Source: an uncultured Candidatus Saccharibacteria bacterium | GTDB lineage: Bacteria > Patescibacteriota > Minisyncoccia > Minisyncoccales > 2-12-FULL-40-12 | Reading direction: 5' to 3' | Assembly (NCBI GenBank): GCA_964518135.1 | Contig: CAZFEY010000001.1 | Coordinates: forward strand, 2,856-66,855 | Length of the DNA: 64,000 nt | Shown here: in pieces, positions 1 through 64,000 of the stretch | Position numbering within the stretch: the first letter of the stretch is position 1 | Layout: the number at the start of each line of letters is the position of its first letter | Made by a program: the position numbers and the translations under genes | Notes under the pieces: model-generated | The model's database searches: none | Told to the model about the DNA's origin: nothing | Seen by the model: the letters and a program-made list of their open reading frames with translations, nothing else

Positions 1-47
1 AGTTTTTATTGCCTTAACCAACATTTTCGTTATATCAAGGATTTCTG

Positions 48-80
48 CTACCTGGCGTACCAGGTAGTGAAAGTTCAACT
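48..80. repeat. left boundary of GIY-YIG cassette: 12-bp direct repeat 'ctacctggcgta' (48-59) followed by inverted-repeat arm 'ccaggtagtgaaagttcaac'
   Basis: Same 12-mer recurs at 375-386; 48-67 forms perfect hairpin ctacctgg-cgta-ccaggtag; arm is imperfect inverse of 360-382. Confidence 0.5.
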
Positions 81-352
81 TAATTTTTCAGCTTATTTTC
101 GTAGAAATGTTCTTTCAACGTGCGCTTCAACAATCTAGACCCTTGGTTCGTTTTAAGATATTCTTCTCTACGCTTAGCATCTTTATCGTTAAGATACGCC
201 TCATAATGAATCAACTGCCATGGTCTATGTGATTTTGTTGAAAAATTCAATCCGCGATTATGTTCTAAAAACCGTTCTTTTAACTTGGTAGTATAGCCGA
301 TATACAAATCTAAATAATTTCTACTCGACAAAACGTAAACATAATGAAACAT
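80..352 (-). CDS. small GIY-YIG nuclease-domain protein (90 aa)
   Basis: N-terminal 'YVYVL...YIGYT' GIY-YIG motif; size and sequence typical of stand-alone GIY-YIG catalytic-domain proteins; paralog of 14399..14647. Confidence 0.75.
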   Translation of the reverse strand: MFHYVYVLSSRNYLDLYIGYTTKLKERFLEHNRGLNFSTKSHRPWQLIHYEAYLNDKDAKRREEYLKTNQGSRLLKRTLKEHFYENKLKN

Positions 353-359
353 AATCGCT

Positions 360-386
360 GGTGTCGAATTTCTACTACCTGGCGTA
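360..386. repeat. right boundary of GIY-YIG cassette: inverted-repeat arm 'gtcgaatttctactacctgg' + 12-bp direct repeat 'ctacctggcgta' overlapping rny stop codon
   Basis: Reverse complement 'ccaggtagtagaaattcgac' matches left arm 'ccaggtagtgaaagttcaac' (about 16/20); 12-mer encodes YAR* of RNase Y and is duplicated at 48-59. Confidence 0.5.
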
Positions 387-1904
387 TTCTATAATTTTCT
401 TTTCTCGAATCAAATTAACTTTTATTTCACCCGGGTACTTCAACTCATCTTGAATTCTGTCAGCTATCTCTCGAGCCATTTTCTTGGCAGCGTAATCATC
501 AATTTCATCCGGCCTTACAAAAATCCTGATTTCGCGCCCCGCTTGAATAGCATAACTTTTATCAACACCCGAAAAAGAATTGGCAATGGCTTCCAAATCG
601 CCCAGTCTCTTTAGATAATTTTCAGCAGTATCTTTCCTTGCGCCAGGCCTTGCTCCAGAAATTGCATCTGCTGCATGCACGAGAACTGCTTCTAGATTAC
701 CGTAGGGATATGTTTCGTGATGAGATCTCATTGCTAAGATTATATCCTCTTCAACGTGGAACTTTTCTAAAATTTTCATTCCAATCTCAAGGTGAGATCC
801 TTCGACCTGATGATCAACTGCCTTTCCGATATCGTGCAGAAGTCCTGCTTTTTTAGCCACCTTTACGTTTCCTCCAAGATCAGCCGCCAGAGCCCCGGCA
901 AGGAAGCCCACCTCCATAGAATGCAACAAAACGCTTTGGCCATAGCTTGTGCGAAAGCGTAGTCTGCCAAGCAACTGCACTAATTTTGGGTCAAGATCTA
1001 AAATACCCATTTCGTAAACCGCTTGCTCGCCAGCTTCTTTCATTTGAGAATTTATTTCCTGCTCTGCCCAAACAACCACATCTTCGATCCTGGCAGGTTG
1101 AATTCGACCGTCTTTAATGAGTTTCTCCAAGGCCAACCTTGCTACTTGGCGACGTACTGGGTCAAAAGAAGAAATAATAACTGTCTCTGGCGTATCATCA
1201 ACCATTAACTCCACACCGGTCAACTTTTCAAAAGTTCTAATATTTCTTCCTTCCTTACCGATTATTCTTCCTTTTATTTCCTCTGACGGCAAGCTAATGG
1301 TAGTAGTTGAAAGCTCCTGCGCCTGATGAGCAGAATACCTTTGAATAGCTGTTGCTAACAATTCTTTTGATTTCTTTTCGTAAGCTTCGGCTCCAGCCGT
1401 TTCTAATTTTTTCATTCTTTCCAAGATGTCTTTTTGGTGGTCTTCTTCTATTTTTTCAAATAATTCTTTTTTCGCTTCGTTTTTGGACAATCCAGCTATT
1501 TTTTCCAGCTTCGCCCCTACCCTTTGTTCAGCACCCTCCAGGTTGGCTTTGATTTCTTTTAGCTTCTCTACTTTTTGATTGAAATCAACTTCTTTTCTTT
1601 CAAAGCCGGTTATCTTCTCGCCCAAAAGACTCTCTCTTTCTGTGAGGATTTTTTCTGTTTTGAGAAATTCGTCTCTTTTTACGTCTATCTCTTTTCTAGT
1701 GTCTTCTAGAACCTTACTGGCTTTTTCTTTGGCAGAAGCCAAAATAGATTCAGCTTCTTCTCTTGTTAGCTGAATTTTCTTCTGTAGTTTCGCCTCTATT
1801 GTGCGATGATCTCTTCTGGCTAGTGTTTGACGAGCGTAATAACCGGCAAAGACTCCCACAATTACAAAAGCCGTGCCTAAAAACGACAAAATTAATGGAT
1901 TCAT
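375..1904 (-). CDS. rny: ribonuclease Y (N-terminal TM, KH and HD domains)
   Basis: N-terminal membrane helix, coiled-coil, KH motif 'IGKEGRNIRTFEKLTGVEL', HD domain 'LLHDIGK'; length 509 aa. Confidence 0.9.
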   Translation of the reverse strand: MNPLILSFLGTAFVIVGVFAGYYARQTLARRDHRTIEAKLQKKIQLTREEAESILASAKEKASKVLEDTRKEIDVKRDEFLKTEKILTERESLLGEKITGFERKEVDFNQKVEKLKEIKANLEGAEQRVGAKLEKIAGLSKNEAKKELFEKIEEDHQKDILERMKKLETAGAEAYEKKSKELLATAIQRYSAHQAQELSTTTISLPSEEIKGRIIGKEGRNIRTFEKLTGVELMVDDTPETVIISSFDPVRRQVARLALEKLIKDGRIQPARIEDVVVWAEQEINSQMKEAGEQAVYEMGILDLDPKLVQLLGRLRFRTSYGQSVLLHSMEVGFLAGALAADLGGNVKVAKKAGLLHDIGKAVDHQVEGSHLEIGMKILEKFHVEEDIILAMRSHHETYPYGNLEAVLVHAADAISGARPGARKDTAENYLKRLGDLEAIANSFSGVDKSYAIQAGREIRIFVRPDEIDDYAAKKMAREIADRIQDELKYPGEIKVNLIREKKIIEYAR

Positions 1905-14126: not shown

Positions 14127-14246
14127 ACTAATTCAAAATCTACCCTACGGTCTAAAAGAATGAAACTTCATATACAAACCCAGACCAAGTTTTAATCCTA
14201 TAGTTATGAAGCATATATTTTAGTTGTAGTTAAACATATTTAATCT

Positions 14247-14289
14247 TGATGGACCTAGCCAGAATCGAACTGGCGACTGATTAATGTCC
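14247..14289 (-). pseudogene. tRNA-like 3' fragment (T-arm GCCAG-TTCGATT-CTGGC + acceptor 3' strand TAGGTCC)
   Basis: Reverse complement gives canonical T-arm and acceptor strand but no complete 5' half; lies immediately 3' of tRNA-Ala. Confidence 0.35.
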
Positions 14290-14385
14290 CGACAGTTCTG
14301 GTGGACCCAGGCGGACTCGAACCGCCGTTTCCGCAATGCGAATGCGACGTCTTACCGCTGGACCATGGGCCCGCCAGAACTGTCG
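14290..14385. repeat. perfect 12-bp inverted repeat (cgacagttctgg / ccagaactgtcg) bracketing tRNA-Ala
   Basis: Arms at 14290-14301 and 14374-14385; arms include the CCA end; would form 12-bp leader/trailer stem around the pre-tRNA. Confidence 0.7.
14299..14372 (-). tRNA. tRNA-Ala (anticodon CGC), CCA encoded
   Basis: RC: GGGCCCA-TG-...-TCGCA-TTCGCAT-TGCGG-AAAC-GGCGG-TTCGAGT-CCGCC-TGGGTCC-A-CCA; G3:U70 alanine identity pair present. Confidence 0.85.
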
Positions 14386-14398
14386 AGGATCCTCGTAT

Positions 14399-14647
14399 TT
14401 ATAAATTTTTTGAAATTAATCCTTCGATCGCACGTCTCTTTTTCCAAGATTTAATCTGCAACTCTCTTTCTTTGGCATCTTTTAATAATCTATACTCTTC
14501 TTTATGCACAATTTCCCAGGGAATATATCTTTTCGTAGATTTAACTAGGCCTTTGTTATGTAAGCTAATTCTTATTTCCAAATCTTCACAACTACCGATA
14601 TAAAATGAATTATTTTTCTCAGATTTTAAAATGTATGTATAAAACAT
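14399..14647 (-). CDS. small GIY-YIG nuclease-domain protein (82 aa)
   Basis: 'MFYTYILKSEKNNSFYIGSCEDLEIRISLHNKG' GIY-YIG motif; paralog of 80..352. Confidence 0.75.
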   Translation of the reverse strand: MFYTYILKSEKNNSFYIGSCEDLEIRISLHNKGLVKSTKRYIPWEIVHKEEYRLLKDAKERELQIKSWKKRRAIEGLISKNL

Positions 14648-14715
14648 TTTAAAAAATTTATAAATCGGGACGAATGCGCCGTTCTGCCATTTAACTACAG
14701 GCCCTACTATATATA

Positions 14716-14812
14716 TGTCGGGGTGCCGGGAATTCCCGCCTGCCTATCACTATCGCTTTAGGCGATGGCGGGCAGGGAACCCGAATTACTGACTTTCACC
14801 TACCGTCGCCTT
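14716..14812 (-). other. tRNA-like conserved element (acceptor-like stem + T-arm-like CGGG-TTCCCTG-CCCG); uninterrupted copy of the element that hosts tRNA-Arg at 16795-16945
   Basis: Shares 'GGGTTCCCTGCCCGCCAT...AGGCAGGCGGG' with 16821-16931; contains 'GGTAGGTGAAAGT' similar to GIY-YIG cassette inverted repeat; the spurious ORFs beginning 'MAGREP' are its translation. Confidence 0.35.
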
Positions 14813-14820
14813 ATTTTGTC

Positions 14821-14893
14821 GGGGTACCCAGATTCGAACTGGGGTCACACGAACCCGAATCGTGTATACTACCACTGTACTATACCCCGTATC
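14821..14893 (-). tRNA. tRNA-Pro (anticodon CGG), no encoded CCA
   Basis: RC: CGGGGTA-TA-GTAC..GTAT-A-CACGA-TTCGGGT-TCGTG-TGAC-CCCAG-TTCGAAT-CTGGG-TACCCCG-A; fully Watson-Crick acceptor, U8, G37. Confidence 0.8.
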
Positions 14894-14894
14894 A

Positions 14895-15160
14895 GGCTTA
14901 TGGCGGACGAGGCCGAAGCCAGCGTAATACCGTTATACCACACCCCGAAAAACTCCCCCAGACAAGATAATATGGATTTTGGGACAATCCGCAACCTTCA
15001 ACAAAACAAATCCTCAAGAGCAAGGGATTTTATTGCTTGGGGAACATCCGCAGGCAAATTGCATGGTTCCGCGAAGCGGAAATTTGCCGAGGAACCGAGC
15101 TTGTCCCGCGCTGGCGGGACAGGGCGTATCCCCAAATATAAAATCCTTGAAGCTCCCCCC
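14895..15160. ncRNA. candidate structured non-coding RNA (GC-rich, nested hairpins and a pseudoknot), family unknown
   Basis: GGCAAATT...AATTTGCC 8-bp inverted repeat enclosing CCGC-GAAG-GCGG hairpin; loop GGTTCC pairs with downstream GGAACC; GTCCCGC-GCTG-GCGGGAC hairpin; GC about 48%; no convincing ORF. Confidence 0.3.
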
Positions 15161-16692
15161 TAACTCACCCAATACTTTTTCTTCGTCATCTCATCCTTTT
15201 TTACTATCAATTGTTCTTTGTCTTTCCTAGATTTTTTAACTAAAGACGTTAATTCTTTATCGGACAACTTACCTAGCTTTTCAGTTTCTTTTTTTAAAAA
15301 CGCTTTTTTGTTGTTTTTTGGATCTTCCAAGATAATCCCCAATAAAATATCCAAAATTTGTCCAACTTTCGGTCCTGGTTTCATTTTCAGAATTTTCATA
15401 ACATCATTCCCTGAAACCTTCAGCATTTTTGCCGAAATCGGGTCTTGCGAGACTTTATCAATGATATATTTAAGATGTCTTAATTTGTATGGTTCGGCCT
15501 TGGGAACGCCAGAACCAATTCTATCTGCCATTCTTAATTGCAAAAGTTCTTCCATATTTTCTATTCCTACCTGACGAACCAGCCTGCGCACAGACGACTC
15601 TCCAACCTCGTCCACATTATAATAAAATAGGTGATAACGAACTAGTTTTGTTATTTTCTCAATGTCTTTATTGGAAAATCTAAGACGATCTAGAATCTGA
15701 CGAGCCATTTTGGCCCCGACAATTTCGTGCCCATAAAAAGTTGAATCTGACCCTTCGCCATGCTTAACTCTTGGCTTTGCAATATCGTGCAACAAAGAGG
15801 CTATTCTTACGTTCTTGTTAAAATTTTTCTTTGCGGCAAAGTCGAGCGCCCTCATATTATGCTCATAACAAGAGTATATATGATGTTTATTCTGACCAAT
15901 ATTATAACCCTCTTCAAGTTCTGGCAAGATATGTTTCAAGAGCGAAAGTTCTCTTAACAACTCTATCCCGCCCATTGCACTTTCTGACATTATAATTTTC
16001 GAAAACTCGTCTCTTATTCTTTCTTGCGAAATATACCTAATCAAATCAGAGTTTTCCTTAATGGCTTTGGCCGTTTCATTTTCTATGTTCCAACCCATTG
16101 TGGTCGCAAAACGAACAGCCCTCATCATTCTCAAAGCGTCTTCTGAAAACCTTTCTCTGGGATTTCCAACGGCTCTAATCAGCTTTTGTTGTAAATCTTC
16201 CTGCCCATTAAAAAGATCTACGACCTTAAAACCTAAATCTTGAAGCTTAAAATCTGAATCTTTTTTTGTCGGTGCTTTAAGCTTTAAGCTTCGCGCTTCA
16301 AGGCCTAACGCTATTGCGTTTACTGTAAAATCGCGCCTAGCTAAATCTTCTTCAAGATTTTTAGCAAAACCGATGTTGTCTGGATGGCGCTTGTCCGTGT
16401 ATTTCGCTTCTTTTCGGAAGGTAGTAATTTCAACTTCTTTCAGTGAAACTTTTTTGCTGCCAGTTTGAACTGTTACCGTAAGAAATTTATTTTCACAAAA
16501 ACTATCTGGGAATATCTTTTGTATCTCTTCTGGCTTAGCATCGGTAGTTATGTCCCAATCCTCGGGATCTGCTCCTCGTAAAATATCCCTAACACACCCT
16601 CCTACAACATAGGCACCATATCCGCTTTTATGAAGTTTTTGGATAATATTCTTTATTTCCTTCGGTATTTCTATTTTTACCATTAAAATCAT
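15160..16692 (-). CDS. cca: CCA-adding enzyme / poly(A) polymerase family nucleotidyltransferase with HD domain
   Basis: 'GAYVVGGCVRDILRG...DWDITT' Pol-beta NT motif, 'RDFTVNAIA', HD domain 'LLHDIAKP'. Confidence 0.85.
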   Translation of the reverse strand: MILMVKIEIPKEIKNIIQKLHKSGYGAYVVGGCVRDILRGADPEDWDITTDAKPEEIQKIFPDSFCENKFLTVTVQTGSKKVSLKEVEITTFRKEAKYTDKRHPDNIGFAKNLEEDLARRDFTVNAIALGLEARSLKLKAPTKKDSDFKLQDLGFKVVDLFNGQEDLQQKLIRAVGNPRERFSEDALRMMRAVRFATTMGWNIENETAKAIKENSDLIRYISQERIRDEFSKIIMSESAMGGIELLRELSLLKHILPELEEGYNIGQNKHHIYSCYEHNMRALDFAAKKNFNKNVRIASLLHDIAKPRVKHGEGSDSTFYGHEIVGAKMARQILDRLRFSNKDIEKITKLVRYHLFYYNVDEVGESSVRRLVRQVGIENMEELLQLRMADRIGSGVPKAEPYKLRHLKYIIDKVSQDPISAKMLKVSGNDVMKILKMKPGPKVGQILDILLGIILEDPKNNKKAFLKKETEKLGKLSDKELTSLVKKSRKDKEQLIVKKDEMTKKKYWVS

Positions 16693-63810: not shown

Positions 63811-63835
63811 AACTATTTATTTAAAAAATTTTTAT

Positions 63836-63960
63836 AGTGGAGGCGGAGGGGTTGAACCCTCGTCCGAAAATTAATTCAGAAATAAATCTACAAACTTAGC
63901 CAGGTTTGTTTTGGAACGAAAAGTATAAAATCTGGCAAAACCCTTTCGTTCTTTGCCTTT
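63836..63960 (-). promoter_or_regulatory. structured 5' leader of infC-rpmI-rplT operon (8-bp hairpin GAACGAAA/TTTCGTTC; tRNA-like T-arm + ...CCTCCA 3' end); possible L20-type autoregulatory leader
   Basis: RC contains GAGGG-TTCAAC-CCCTC T-arm-like hairpin adjacent to CGCCTCCA; no matching 5' acceptor strand, so not a complete tRNA. Confidence 0.3.
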
Positions 63961-64000
63961 GTTTTTGATAGCTCTCCAGGCACTAGAGTTATCTATCTCG

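Follow-up and report, generated by a model that had tools for sequence, protein, structure and literature searches.

The closest described relatives of the system analysed here are the Ssn proteins, a GIY-YIG family whose members cleave single-stranded DNA site-specifically and whose genes are flanked by hairpin repeats termed NTS/SRM (Chenal et al., Nat Commun 2025, PMC11893778). It was demonstrated that these enzymes recognise the hairpin repeats and cut just outside them, and that cleavage takes place on single-stranded DNA next to the repeat, with no activity on double-stranded DNA or RNA (PMC11893778). The catalytic residues of Nm SsnA are Y6, Y17 and E64 (PMC11893778, Fig. 3 legend), and membership in the family is assigned either by a top CDD match to cd10448 or by a blastp match to Nm SsnA (CAX49033.1) with E<1e-10 and 75% coverage (PMC11893778). 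The repeat-gene-repeat layout was likened by the same authors to that of an insertion sequence, mobility being put forward as a hypothesis only (PMC11893778).

In the 64,000-nucleotide stretch of DNA analysed here, hereafter the window, a copy of a putative mobile element occupies positions 60-382, at the 3' end of rny. This copy comprises 323 bp and consists of two 20-bp terminal inverted arms and one gene. Its parts, the adjoining host genes and the arms of a second GIY-YIG gene are the following:

1..24, minus strand: start of the downstream host gene, F420-ligase/CofE-like, whose true ATG is at 24-22.
41..55, minus strand: native rny tail CC AGG TAG (48-55) plus 7 nt, CAGAAAT (41-47); similar natural rny ends occur in relatives.
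56..59, minus strand: downstream copy of the target duplication, TACG, matching the copy at 383..386.
60..79, minus strand: right terminal inverted arm, downstream of the ORF, with gene-strand sequence GTTGAACTTTCACTACCTGG ('G-type' as reverse complement).
80..352, minus strand: GIY-YIG nuclease ORF of 90 aa, single domain, from the ORF list (Pfam GIY-YIG E=3e-13).
353..362, minus strand: leader of 10 nt (ACCAGCGATT) between the left arm and the nuclease ATG.
363..382, minus strand: left terminal inverted arm, upstream of the ORF, with gene-strand sequence CCAGGTAGTAGAAATTCGAC ('A-type'), kept in 55 loci.
383..386, minus strand: upstream copy of the target duplication, TACG on the gene strand, where TAC is the Tyr codon and G belongs to the rny Ala codon.
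375..1904, minus strand: rny, host gene for RNase Y, 509 aa (Pfam RNase_Y_N, KH, HD).
14397-14416 and 14646-14665: 20-nt inverted arms of the second GIY-YIG gene, different from those of the first element.

The original prediction described a GIY-YIG cassette inserted exactly at the rny stop codon, with a 12-bp target duplication. The 12-mer behind this description, CTACCTGGCGTA, was indeed found at 48-59 and at 375-386; on the minus strand it reads TAC GCC AGG TAG and encodes Y-A-R-stop of the 509-aa RNase Y, and the 90-aa GIY-YIG frame at 80..352(-) is, as claimed, the sole ORF between both copies. When up to one mismatch was allowed, three matches to the 12-mer were observed in the window versus 0.05 expected, and no shuffle reached three. 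However, the duplication had to be shortened, since most family copies have one matching 4-mer on either side and the family-wide repeat measures 3-4 bp, and the true duplication is therefore one of 4 bp (TACG). The other 8 nt of the 12-mer (CCAGGTAG) belong to the left arm in the 375-382 copy and to the native rny end in the 48-55 copy. The insertion point was also displaced, lying not at the stop codon but 5 nt upstream of it, inside the Ala codon and between its G and CC.

The direct repeat as a whole spans 19 nt (41-59 versus 368-386, 18/19 identical), and segment 41-55 agrees with the left arm at 14 of its first 15 nt. A 19-bp target duplication was likewise rejected, considering the family-wide repeat of 3-4 bp and the identification of the following 8 nt as native rny sequence. 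The extra 7-nt similarity after the octamer (CAGAAAT versus TAGAAAT, 6/7 matching) could be a remnant of an earlier copy or could reflect a preference for arm-like targets, both being possible; in loci L071 and L072, the duplication is likewise followed by a partial arm of ~15 nt.

As regards the host genes, the last 8 nt of rny (CC AGG TAG, 375-382) now come from the element arm. The outer octamer CCAGGTAG of the arm happens to re-encode the lost Ala-Arg-stop and, therefore, RNase Y is unchanged, with a C-terminus, EYAR*, that is the same in 31 relatives. The placement of the rny stop in the 375-386 copy was right insofar as the stop codon now used is 375-377, within the left arm, but this codon is supplied by the arm, the native stop being that at 48-50. 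Among relatives, the natural rny ends TACGCCAGATAA and TATGCCAGGTAA were present. The element occupies the space between rny and the downstream gene and has the same orientation as both. The database call of the downstream gene begins at TTG 78, inside the element arm, instead of at ATG 24-22.

Relatives lacking the insert were found when the empty-site check suggested by the original prediction was carried out. In the first of the two closest relatives (L136, RNase Y 81% identical), GAATACGCGAGATAG is followed by 9 nt and the ATG of the same downstream gene; in the second (L011, RNase Y 66% identical), the site is likewise empty, with rny followed by the same downstream gene, and both carry a single TACG at the rny end. 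The empty rny junction would read GAATACGCCAGGTAGCAGAAATCC. Within 3 kb of rny, a GIY-YIG gene was found in 0/32 rny relatives. A second empty site is provided by an insertion at the trxB start codon (L077) and its empty counterpart from the same metagenome (L142), the two hosts being only 95% identical in TrxB. From these empty sites, insertion of the element into the rny end, with boundaries at the arms, is strongly supported. In the population of the window, no empty allele of the locus was observed, all 20 + 13 contigs with an identical GIY-YIG or RNase Y being occupied. Additionally, the best nucleotide identity between copies in different contexts was 92.7% and there is, therefore, no sign of very recent movement; neither a transposition event nor an excision product or circle junction was seen. 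Phage carriage was also looked for, with 0 matches to the arm in viral contigs.

The imperfect inverted arms announced around the ORF were confirmed. In the window copy, the arms at 60-79 and 363-382 are 80% complementary over 20 nt (16/20), the right arm abutting the TAA stop codon of the GIY-YIG ORF. Judged alone, this pair does not stand out from inverted repeats arising by chance within the same 700 nt; its significance derives from the conservation of the arms in 55 other loci. In the predicted single-stranded DNA fold of the window copy, the partner of the right arm is the native rny tail and not the left arm, and an 8-bp hairpin, CTACCTGG-TACG-CCAGGTAG, is formed at 48-55/60-67 by the right arm with that tail. 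A circle junction between the two ends of a single copy would read CTACCTGG-NNNN-CCAGGTAG, and arm pairs of the family would be matched by CCNGGTAGTRRAAA...TTTYYACTACCNGG.

Homologous ORFs were identified in 70 other distinct metagenomic contexts, both arms being present in 55/70. Family elements measure 306-363 bp (mode 319-320), the ..GCGATT-ATG motif of the leader is conserved among them, and their arms are 18/20 complementary. An identical 4-mer was observed on both flanks in 38/55, and 3 nt were common in seven more; the flanking 4-mers matched on both sides include TATG, TGGA (five times), TGGG, CATG and TACG. Since non-TATG flank pairs also match each other, the repeat originates at the target site, not within the element. 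Moreover, these arms and flanking repeats recur in ORF-less mini elements of 69-131 nt, which frequently stand in tandem with full-length copies. In one further locus (L055), a GC-rich upstream hairpin was considered as an alternative element end and rejected, as it lies inside a likely duplicated FMN-riboswitch region; the copy in this locus is 5'-truncated, and the riboswitch duplication was judged by eye. In 676 kb of Patescibacteria DNA, the arms occurred only beside the GIY-YIG family or as minis adjoining it, and no transposase or integrase was found in the window's neighbourhood or in most family loci. By terminal inverted repeats, target duplication, empty sites and unrelated contexts, the window copy and its family can be classed operationally, on sequence grounds, as a probable transposable element. 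A description of this large Patescibacteria element family was not found in the literature.

The two arms co-vary across the family. Compensatory changes, G-U pairs included, were observed at 10/20 pairs, in 41 cells, a level reached by 0/500 shuffles, and 94% of the arm cells were paired, versus 23-46% when the register was slid. A mismatch at arm positions 10-11 is constant and is retained in the minis. The arms stay 18/20 complementary even though synonymous sites are saturated (dS ~1.8; dN/dS 0.09). Such co-variation is equally compatible with pairing in single-stranded DNA, pairing in RNA, or homogenisation of the two ends. When a canonical family copy was folded as single-stranded DNA, the two arms formed the closing stem, and when it was folded as RNA, the outer 13 bp of the arms were paired (z = -5.1).

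Regarding target choice, the family prefers TATG at host start codons, and most of its members are positioned precisely at the start codon of a housekeeping gene, whereas the window copy lies instead in the last codons of rny. Of the ATG-flanked copies, 37/40 are placed on a host start codon that opens a long host ORF; the hosts include secA, trxB and fba, and alignments to the Pfam models for secA, trxB-like, comM, class-I aaRS, fba and tRNA_bind begin at residues 1-5. In 30/40 of these copies, the nuclease shares its reading frame with the upstream ATG, which accounts for the 'MPGSENSTAI' extensions of database proteins. More than 25 independent insertion contexts were counted in the family, and beyond TATG neither an extended target consensus nor flank-to-element complementarity was detected in 25 independent contexts.

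The Pfam GIY-YIG domain covers residues 3-72 of the 90-aa protein (E=3e-13), with no other domain, and the residues invariant in the family are all present in it (Y4, Y6, Y17, G19, R27, H31, E63 and others). Among these, Y6, Y17 and E63 are invariant in 33 family members and align with the equivalent residues of SRM-flanked homologs. A dN/dS of ~0.09 indicates strong purifying selection on the nuclease ORF across all contexts. The hhalign comparison with the GIY-YIG proteins of SRM-flanked genes, for which the second GIY-YIG protein of the window served as a bridge, returned a probability of 98.4% (E=8e-15) with 35% identity over 71 columns; the partner set consisted of Azospirillum/Sinorhizobium/Rhizobium proteins, of which L139 and L141 had SRM matches in their flanks and L140 had none. 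The nearest solved structures were 1zg2 (E=2e-8), 1ywl and SLX1 chains, UPF0213 and SLX1 having similar scores. No NCBIfam match was obtained for the protein, and tblastn against plasmids returned one weak Enterococcus match only. Taken from profile comparison, the window protein is homologous to the Ssn GIY-YIG nucleases. The SRM motif, HGTCWYN(0-2)YYVSBRHN(0-5)WNVSBRGN(0-2)RNCYNB, was matched neither in the 64-kb window nor in 281 kb of family loci, and the controls of the search were positive (the NTS control was found, as were four sites each around L139 and L141).

The original prediction also pointed to a related arm motif next to the second GIY-YIG gene. The motif exists (GGTAGGTGAAAGT, on the minus strand at ~14793-14805), but as an arm of that cassette it was rejected, the gene having its own, different arms. 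No intron-containing tRNA was found around this gene by ARAGORN with introns up to 600 nt, and an Rfam scan of 14150-15250 returned two tRNAs and nothing else.

Taken together, the locus is probably best explained as a 323-bp transposable element that encodes an Ssn-related nuclease and was inserted at TACG in rny, and a mechanism of movement can be proposed as part of this reading. The two arms would pair in single-stranded DNA to form a 20-bp stem with a conserved G.T + A.C tandem mismatch, and this stem would join the two element ends. The encoded nuclease might recognise the stem and cut at the flanking tetranucleotide, by analogy with Ssn on hairpin repeats, after which host replication or repair enzymes could finish excision or copying and integration at another TAYG. 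An additional role in RNA is compatible with this scheme, in which the stem in the mRNA would loop the element out and bring the host ribosome-binding site near the duplicated start codon. The nuclease itself may be translated from the captured upstream ATG or, in the window copy, by coupling to rny. To our knowledge, GIY-YIG enzymes are hydrolytic and none performs strand transfer; integration would thus need other factors, one of which might conceivably be a separate transposase acting in trans.

This absence of known strand transfer gives some weight to a non-autonomous cassette, whose arms would be recognised by a conventional transposase or recombinase encoded elsewhere in the genome and whose cargo would be the GIY-YIG gene, e.g., one for a nuclease of defence or repair. 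The ORF-less minis show that the ends suffice for propagation, and the arm'-TATG-arm junctions of tandem copies fit recombination at a circle junction or core site. However, we consider such a cassette unlikely, given the confinement of the arms to the GIY-YIG family and its minis in the Patescibacteria DNA searched, the lack of transposase or integrase genes near the window copy and in most loci, and the purifying selection on the ORF in every context; moreover, Ssn-type homologs in other phyla are bracketed by their own cognate repeats (PMC11893778). The original prediction had offered a mobile or a homing cassette, and its first half is favoured by the empty sites, arms, direct repeats and ORF-less derivatives. 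In the homing version, a free-standing endonuclease would cut the empty junction between rny and the downstream gene, and its gene would be copied from an occupied allele by double-strand-break repair ('intronless homing'). The enzyme is a GIY-YIG nuclease, as this would demand, and the rny 3' end is occupied in a second lineage, L085, where GAATATG is followed directly by CCAGGTAG and the native TATGCCCGATAA is kept downstream. Additionally, one subfamily recurs at the ends of homologous genes finishing in ...W-T-G*, where the outer arm octamer mimics the host gene end (m8 = 7-8). On the other hand, the sites are otherwise unrelated (secA, trxB, fba, comM, aaRS), sharing only TATG in 25 independent contexts, the single 90-aa domain has no DNA-binding extension, and conserved inverted termini, tandem copies, minis and a 4-bp duplication dictated by the target are hallmarks of transposons rather than of homing through homologous repair, all of which makes homing quite improbable.

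Similarly small is the chance that the arms act mainly as RNA, as a processing or insulating stem (e.g., an RNase III site or a split ribosome-binding-site device), with the gene spread by ordinary recombination and the duplication incidental. The G-U pairs among the compensatory changes, the canonical RNA fold and the position of the element, always co-oriented with and wedged between co-transcribed host genes, agree with it, as do the GIY-YIG ORFs in CPR rRNA insertions, which resemble neither group I nor group II introns (PMC11270868). However, target-derived 4-bp repeats, exact-boundary empty sites, tandem arrays and minis would be left unexplained, and an A.C mismatch is conserved in the stem; an RNA function is compatible as a second role of the arms beside transposition, not as its replacement. 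Coincidence, a terminator hairpin, or a small local duplication that placed copies of the rny end in tandem on both sides of a gene already present would account for arms that are only 80% complementary and have comparable inverted repeats nearby, but the likelihood of these explanations is negligible in view of the 12-mer expectation, the arms in 55 loci and the existence of empty sites. In particular, the arms as a common terminator, named beforehand as an observation that would speak against a mobile cassette, were ruled out, with no terminator-like call at the hairpin, no T-run following it, and the arm motif absent from all 32 rny-relative loci.

Returning to the transposable element, a broader claim can be made only tentatively, at somewhat less than even chances: that this is the first autonomous family of prokaryotic DNA transposons with a ~90-aa GIY-YIG (Ssn-like) nuclease as its only protein and, at ~320 bp, the smallest known self-encoded mobile element, with ends read as one mismatch-bearing stem and insertion at TATG, preferentially at start codons of essential genes. 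The ATG would thereby be doubled, its upstream copy driving the nuclease from the ribosome-binding site of the host and its downstream copy keeping the host gene alive. Placement on start codons of essential genes, with in-frame capture of host initiation signals, represents an unusual route to tolerance in very compact genomes. The 90-aa protein and two 20-nt arms also offer a minimal system for how a hydrolytic nuclease could drive DNA mobility and, if the nuclease cuts a programmable stem from two separate strands, as Ssn does, would bring new specificities to that tool family. Annotation is affected as well, as gene callers extend the nuclease N-termini ('MPGSENSTAI...') and false starts like TTG 78 may recur elsewhere.

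When compared with classical insertion sequences and MITEs, the family shares terminal inverted repeats, a short duplication, many contexts, miniature ORF-less derivatives and tandem copies with one common duplication. It differs from classical elements in that no DDE, DEDD, Ser, Tyr, HUH or Cas1 transposase is present, the only ORF being the GIY-YIG one, and in that ~320 bp is far below the size of known autonomous insertion sequences; we know of no recognised insertion-sequence family that uses a GIY-YIG nuclease. With IS200/IS605 and REP/RAYT it has in common a very small size, ends recognised as DNA structure, 4-nt target specificity, ORF-less palindromic derivatives and strand- or orientation-biased insertion. 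However, IS200/IS605 rely on an HUH tyrosine (Y1) transposase, whereas a GIY-YIG protein and no HUH protein is found here, and they carry a subterminal hairpin per end, without terminal inverted repeats or target duplication, in contrast to the mutually complementary termini and 4-bp duplication of this family. GIY-YIG homing endonucleases (I-TevI, T4 Seg) share the catalytic domain and the condition of a selfish gene between or at the ends of conserved genes, but they carry DNA-binding domains at the C-terminus, have long specific targets and rely on homologous repair to spread, and their genes lack inverted termini and target duplications. The best solved-structure relatives of the 90-aa protein, UPF0213/YhbQ and Slx1, are encoded by chromosomal genes of the repair type, which lack flanking arms and show no evidence of being mobile. 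Branched and stem-loop DNA is the substrate of Slx1, in keeping with cleavage directed by structure. In contrast to classical insertion sequences, the arm sequences of the present family drift under maintained complementarity, which points to recognition of structure rather than sequence by a protein.

The comparison with Ssn is the closest one. Both have a single-domain GIY-YIG protein of ~90-97 aa with catalytic Tyr/Tyr/Glu at equivalent positions, and in both the gene is bracketed by stem-forming inverted repeats and co-oriented between housekeeping genes (sufB-GIY-YIG-sufC in Azospirillum). They differ in that the published SRM motif is absent from the window and the family loci, that one 20-nt half stands at each end here and pairs across the gene, whereas Ssn repeats are self-contained hairpins of ~28 nt, that the hundreds of dispersed repeat copies are not seen here, and that the C-terminal tail reads ..KT.QGSRLLKR.. 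versus ..KKW.R.WK... Furthermore, the present family provides documented cases of 4-bp duplications derived from the target, of empty sites, of start-codon targeting and of ORF-less minis, whereas mobility was a hypothesis in the Ssn study. The 2025 Ssn study proposed IS-like repeat-ssn-repeat units without insertion evidence (PMC11893778), and such evidence, in the form of exact boundaries, target duplications, empty sites and miniature derivatives, is supplied by the Patescibacteria elements.

The window (G+C 39%) is Patescibacteria (CPR) DNA. At its start, a small GIY-YIG gene is found between rny and an F420-ligase/CofE-like gene, the minus-strand order being rny, GIY-YIG ORF, F420-ligase/CofE-like gene:

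375..1904, minus strand: rny (Pfam RNase_Y_N, KH, HD)
80..352, minus strand: 90-aa GIY-YIG ORF (Pfam GIY-YIG, E=3e-13)
3′ of the GIY-YIG ORF and running past the window start, minus strand: F420-ligase/CofE-like gene
383-386 and 56-59, gene orientation: 4-bp duplication TACG

The original prediction described a mobile GIY-YIG cassette inserted exactly at the rny stop codon with a 12-bp target duplication. The 12-mer was confirmed at 48-59 and 375-386 (expected count 0.05) as a portion of a 19-nt repeat (41-59 and 368-386, 18/19 identical), and the ORF between its copies is enclosed by 20-nt inverted arms (60-79 and 363-382, 80% complementary). However, the target duplication proved to be 4 bp (TACG), to which an 8-nt coincidence of the arm with the native gene end is added, and the element (60-382, 323 bp) lies 5 nt before the native stop, within an Ala codon that is split with G on one side and CC on the other. 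Since the outer octamer of the element, CCAGGTAG, re-encodes (A)la-Arg-stop, RNase Y still ends in EYAR*, like its relatives, while the native tail CC AGG TAG is kept at 48-55, where it can form an 8-bp hairpin with 60-67. This hairpin is followed by no T-run, and a terminator scan makes no call there, which, together with the distribution of the arm motif among relatives, argues against the arm being a common terminator. The match extends 7 nt beyond the octamer (CAGAAAT versus TAGAAAT); in the window (41-55) and in two other loci carrying the element (L071, 2395-2820; L072, 783-826), about 15 nt just past the downstream 4-bp repeat copy the arm start at 13-14 of 15 positions, which may be the footprint of an earlier copy or an arm-like target preference. 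Additionally, the database start of the F420-ligase/CofE-like gene is TTG 78, within the right arm; its homologs show no alignment before the ATG at 24-22, so the N-terminus called from TTG 78 is an artefact that the insertion caused in the annotation.

An RNase Y scan with one genome per species gave 32 relatives, none of them with a GIY-YIG gene within 3 kb of rny or with the arm motif at the rny locus. In the closest of these (L011, RNase Y 66% identical), rny ends in GAATACGCTCGTTAA and the CofE-like ATG follows 25 nt on. A closer relative obtained by protein search (L136, 81% identical) reads GAATACGCGAGATAG-TTTTCTACG-ATG of the same downstream gene, and deleting 60-382 plus one TACG from the window gives exactly this arrangement, with a spacer of 23 nt. 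The empty sites hold a single copy of the 4-mer. It was also verified that rny ends in E-Y/F-A-R/K-stop in 31/31 relatives, with TACG (n=17) or TATG (n=12) at the duplicated position and with TACGCCAGATAA and TATGCCAGGTAA among the natural ends. In a different lineage (L085), an insertion that looks independent of that in the window occupies the same rny position, with TATG, opposite arm polarity and the native end TATGCCCGATAA kept. A second empty site was provided by trxB, which bears the element on its ATG in the metagenomic locus L077; its counterpart L142 (same metagenome; TrxB 95% identical) lacks the element and has a colinear region upstream of trxB with a single ATG. The window copy itself is fixed, being present in all 20 + 13 contigs encoding identical proteins.

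Hundreds of homologs of the GIY-YIG protein were found, at 64-79% identity, and it is better conserved than RNase Y among the same organisms. The neighbourhoods of these homologs are wholly different (rpsO/NYN, trpS/ribE, hypothetical genes), and the same sequence brackets the ORF in all of them. A metagenome scan yielded 80 loci in 70 distinct contexts, and both arms were found in 55 of the 70, which, with the empty sites of L011 and L136, bears out the reading as a mobile cassette. The consensus layout is TATG, CCAGGTAGTGAAAATTCGAC, 7 nt, the ORF from ATG to stop, GTCGAATTTCTACTACCTGG and TATG again, with lengths of 306-363 bp (mode 319-320). Across the family, the arms are complementary at 18/20 positions, and the two unpaired positions are constant (GTGAAAA versus GTAGAAA), giving G.T beside A.C if the stem forms. 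Of the two arm forms, the G-type stands upstream of the ORF in 48 copies, the polarity being reversed in six, including the window copy. Among 34 distinct arm pairs, compensatory double changes were observed at 10/20 positions (41 cells; reached by 0/500 shuffles), and 94% of cells were paired in the true register versus 23-46% with the register slid. Although the ORF has reached saturation at synonymous sites (median dS ~1.8), the arms remain complementary; therefore, complementarity is kept by selection and does not merely reflect recent copying, and a dN/dS of 0.09 places the nuclease under purifying selection as well. When the profile was run against a library clustered at 50% identity, E<=1e-30 was reached by 9 representatives, E<=1e-10 by 4,094 and E<=1e-3 by 17,329, so that the family forms a tight cluster inside a very large assemblage of small GIY-YIG proteins.

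An identical 4-mer flanks the element in 38/55 loci, and 3 nt are common to both sides in seven more. Since 4-mers other than TATG also agree from side to side (TACG in the window, TGGA five times, TGGG, CATG), the flanking repeat is made from the target; no consensus beyond the tetranucleotide was found across 25 independent TATG sites. An ATG directly follows the right arm in 40 loci and opens a long ORF in 37 of them. These are real start codons, as alignments to the Pfam models for SecA, TrxB-like reductase, ComM/Mg-chelatase, class-I aminoacyl-tRNA synthetase, class-II aldolase and tRNA-binding protein begin within the first few residues. The upstream ATG copy shares the reading frame of the nuclease in 30/40 loci, which explains the 'MPGSENSTAI' N-terminal extensions of many database entries.

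In fold predictions for a canonical copy, the two arms form the closing stem as single-stranded DNA, in both the MFE and the centroid, and their outer 13 bp pair as RNA; for the window copy, local pairing of the right arm with the native rny tail is predicted instead. Slx1 performs structure-specific cutting. GIY-YIG enzymes are hydrolases, for which reason an additional partner or a transposase could also take part in the movement. Beyond the insertion, its boundaries and the duplication, which the comparisons established, we infer by analogy with Ssn and Slx1 that the nuclease would recognise the arm stem, which bears the conserved tandem mismatch, and cut at the flanking tetranucleotide, host functions then finishing the movement. 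Ssn enzymes make hairpin-directed cuts immediately beyond the stem, and do so too where two strands make up that stem (PMC11893778). Selection can account for the element strictly sharing the orientation of its host genes and for its placement on start codons: in essential genes, the only tolerated copies would be those that capture host translation signals and permit re-initiation on the duplicated ATG, which an RNA stem looping the element out would aid.

In ORF-less copies of 69-131 nt, the arms are retained together with their mismatch, and the flanking repeats are again TATG or TGGA. One stands alone (L088), and others lie in tandem with a full copy, sharing one repeat (L086, L096, L108, L067, L071); that of L086 retains pieces of both ORF ends. 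A 5′-truncated element (L055, 2150-2560), with its left arm cut to CCAG and its start codon lost, adjoins a riboflavin synthase gene on one side and, judged by eye, an FMN-riboswitch-looking region on the other; this contig includes a run of N, and the latter region appears to be duplicated in it.

The gene-between-arms architecture recurs in the window with an unrelated arm sequence:

14399..14647, minus strand: second GIY-YIG gene, 35% identical to the first
14397-14416 and 14646-14665: its inverted arms, 20 nt, AT-rich, 95% complementary

The arm-related motif GGTAGGTGAAAGT that had been reported near 14790 is present as a single copy at 14793-14805 (minus strand), ~140 nt upstream of this gene and adjoining a GC-rich hairpin (14729-14790). 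It is not an arm of the second gene, which has its own; the motif matches the family arm only with an indel and has no partner. Within 14250-14710, the second gene and an intact tRNA-Ala(CGC) (14299-14372, minus strand), the latter bracketed by its own 20-nt inverted repeat (14290-14309 and 14366-14385), lie between two pieces that resemble a 5′ and a 3′ half from a single tRNA, with acceptor pairing of 7/7 including G3:U70; ARAGORN made no call for this outer tRNA with introns of up to 600 nt allowed. A GC-rich stretch of ~270 nt between tRNA-Pro and the CCA-adding-enzyme gene (14890-15160) has no convincing ORF and drew no Rfam hit at E<=1; it may represent a structured RNA of an undescribed kind. 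At its far end, the window breaks off within a tmRNA gene, of which the 3′ part is present (63835-64000, minus strand; RF00023, 60.5 bits).

Judging from these comparisons, the rny insertion is a real, well-delimited mobile element, belonging to a family for which literature searches found no description. The nearest known system is Ssn, a family of single-domain GIY-YIG proteins (~94 aa; CDD cd10448). These bind only single-stranded DNA, at a hairpin repeat (NTS/SRM), and cleave a few nt upstream of that repeat; ssn genes usually have these repeats on their flanks, a layout likened by the authors to an insertion sequence, with no insertion events shown (PMC11893778). The published SRM pattern gave 0 matches in the window and 0 in 281 kb of family loci; the controls were positive, namely the NTS control and four sites each around the GIY-YIG genes of Azospirillum (between sufB and sufC) and Rhizobium. 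The former locus (L139; Azospirillum lipoferum 4B plasmid AZO_p3, 254918-256327) is a textbook example of the Ssn type, located within an essential operon: its 97-aa GIY-YIG gene has, on either flank, two NTS-like hairpins that form an inverted pair (CGTCATCCCCGCGAAGGCGGGGATCCAG). When the family profile was compared with that of proteins from three alphaproteobacterial loci, two of them SRM-flanked, a probability of 98.4% was obtained (E=8e-15, 35% identity over 71 columns), and solved structures scored comparably (UPF0213 proteins, E=2e-8; SLX1). The family may be filed as Ssn-like, with a homologous protein and the same general repeat-gene-repeat layout. However, its repeat has another sequence, and its two half-sites pair across the gene, whereas Ssn hairpins are self-contained. 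It also has direct comparative evidence of insertion, and in this respect it takes the Ssn story on to bona fide insertion events.
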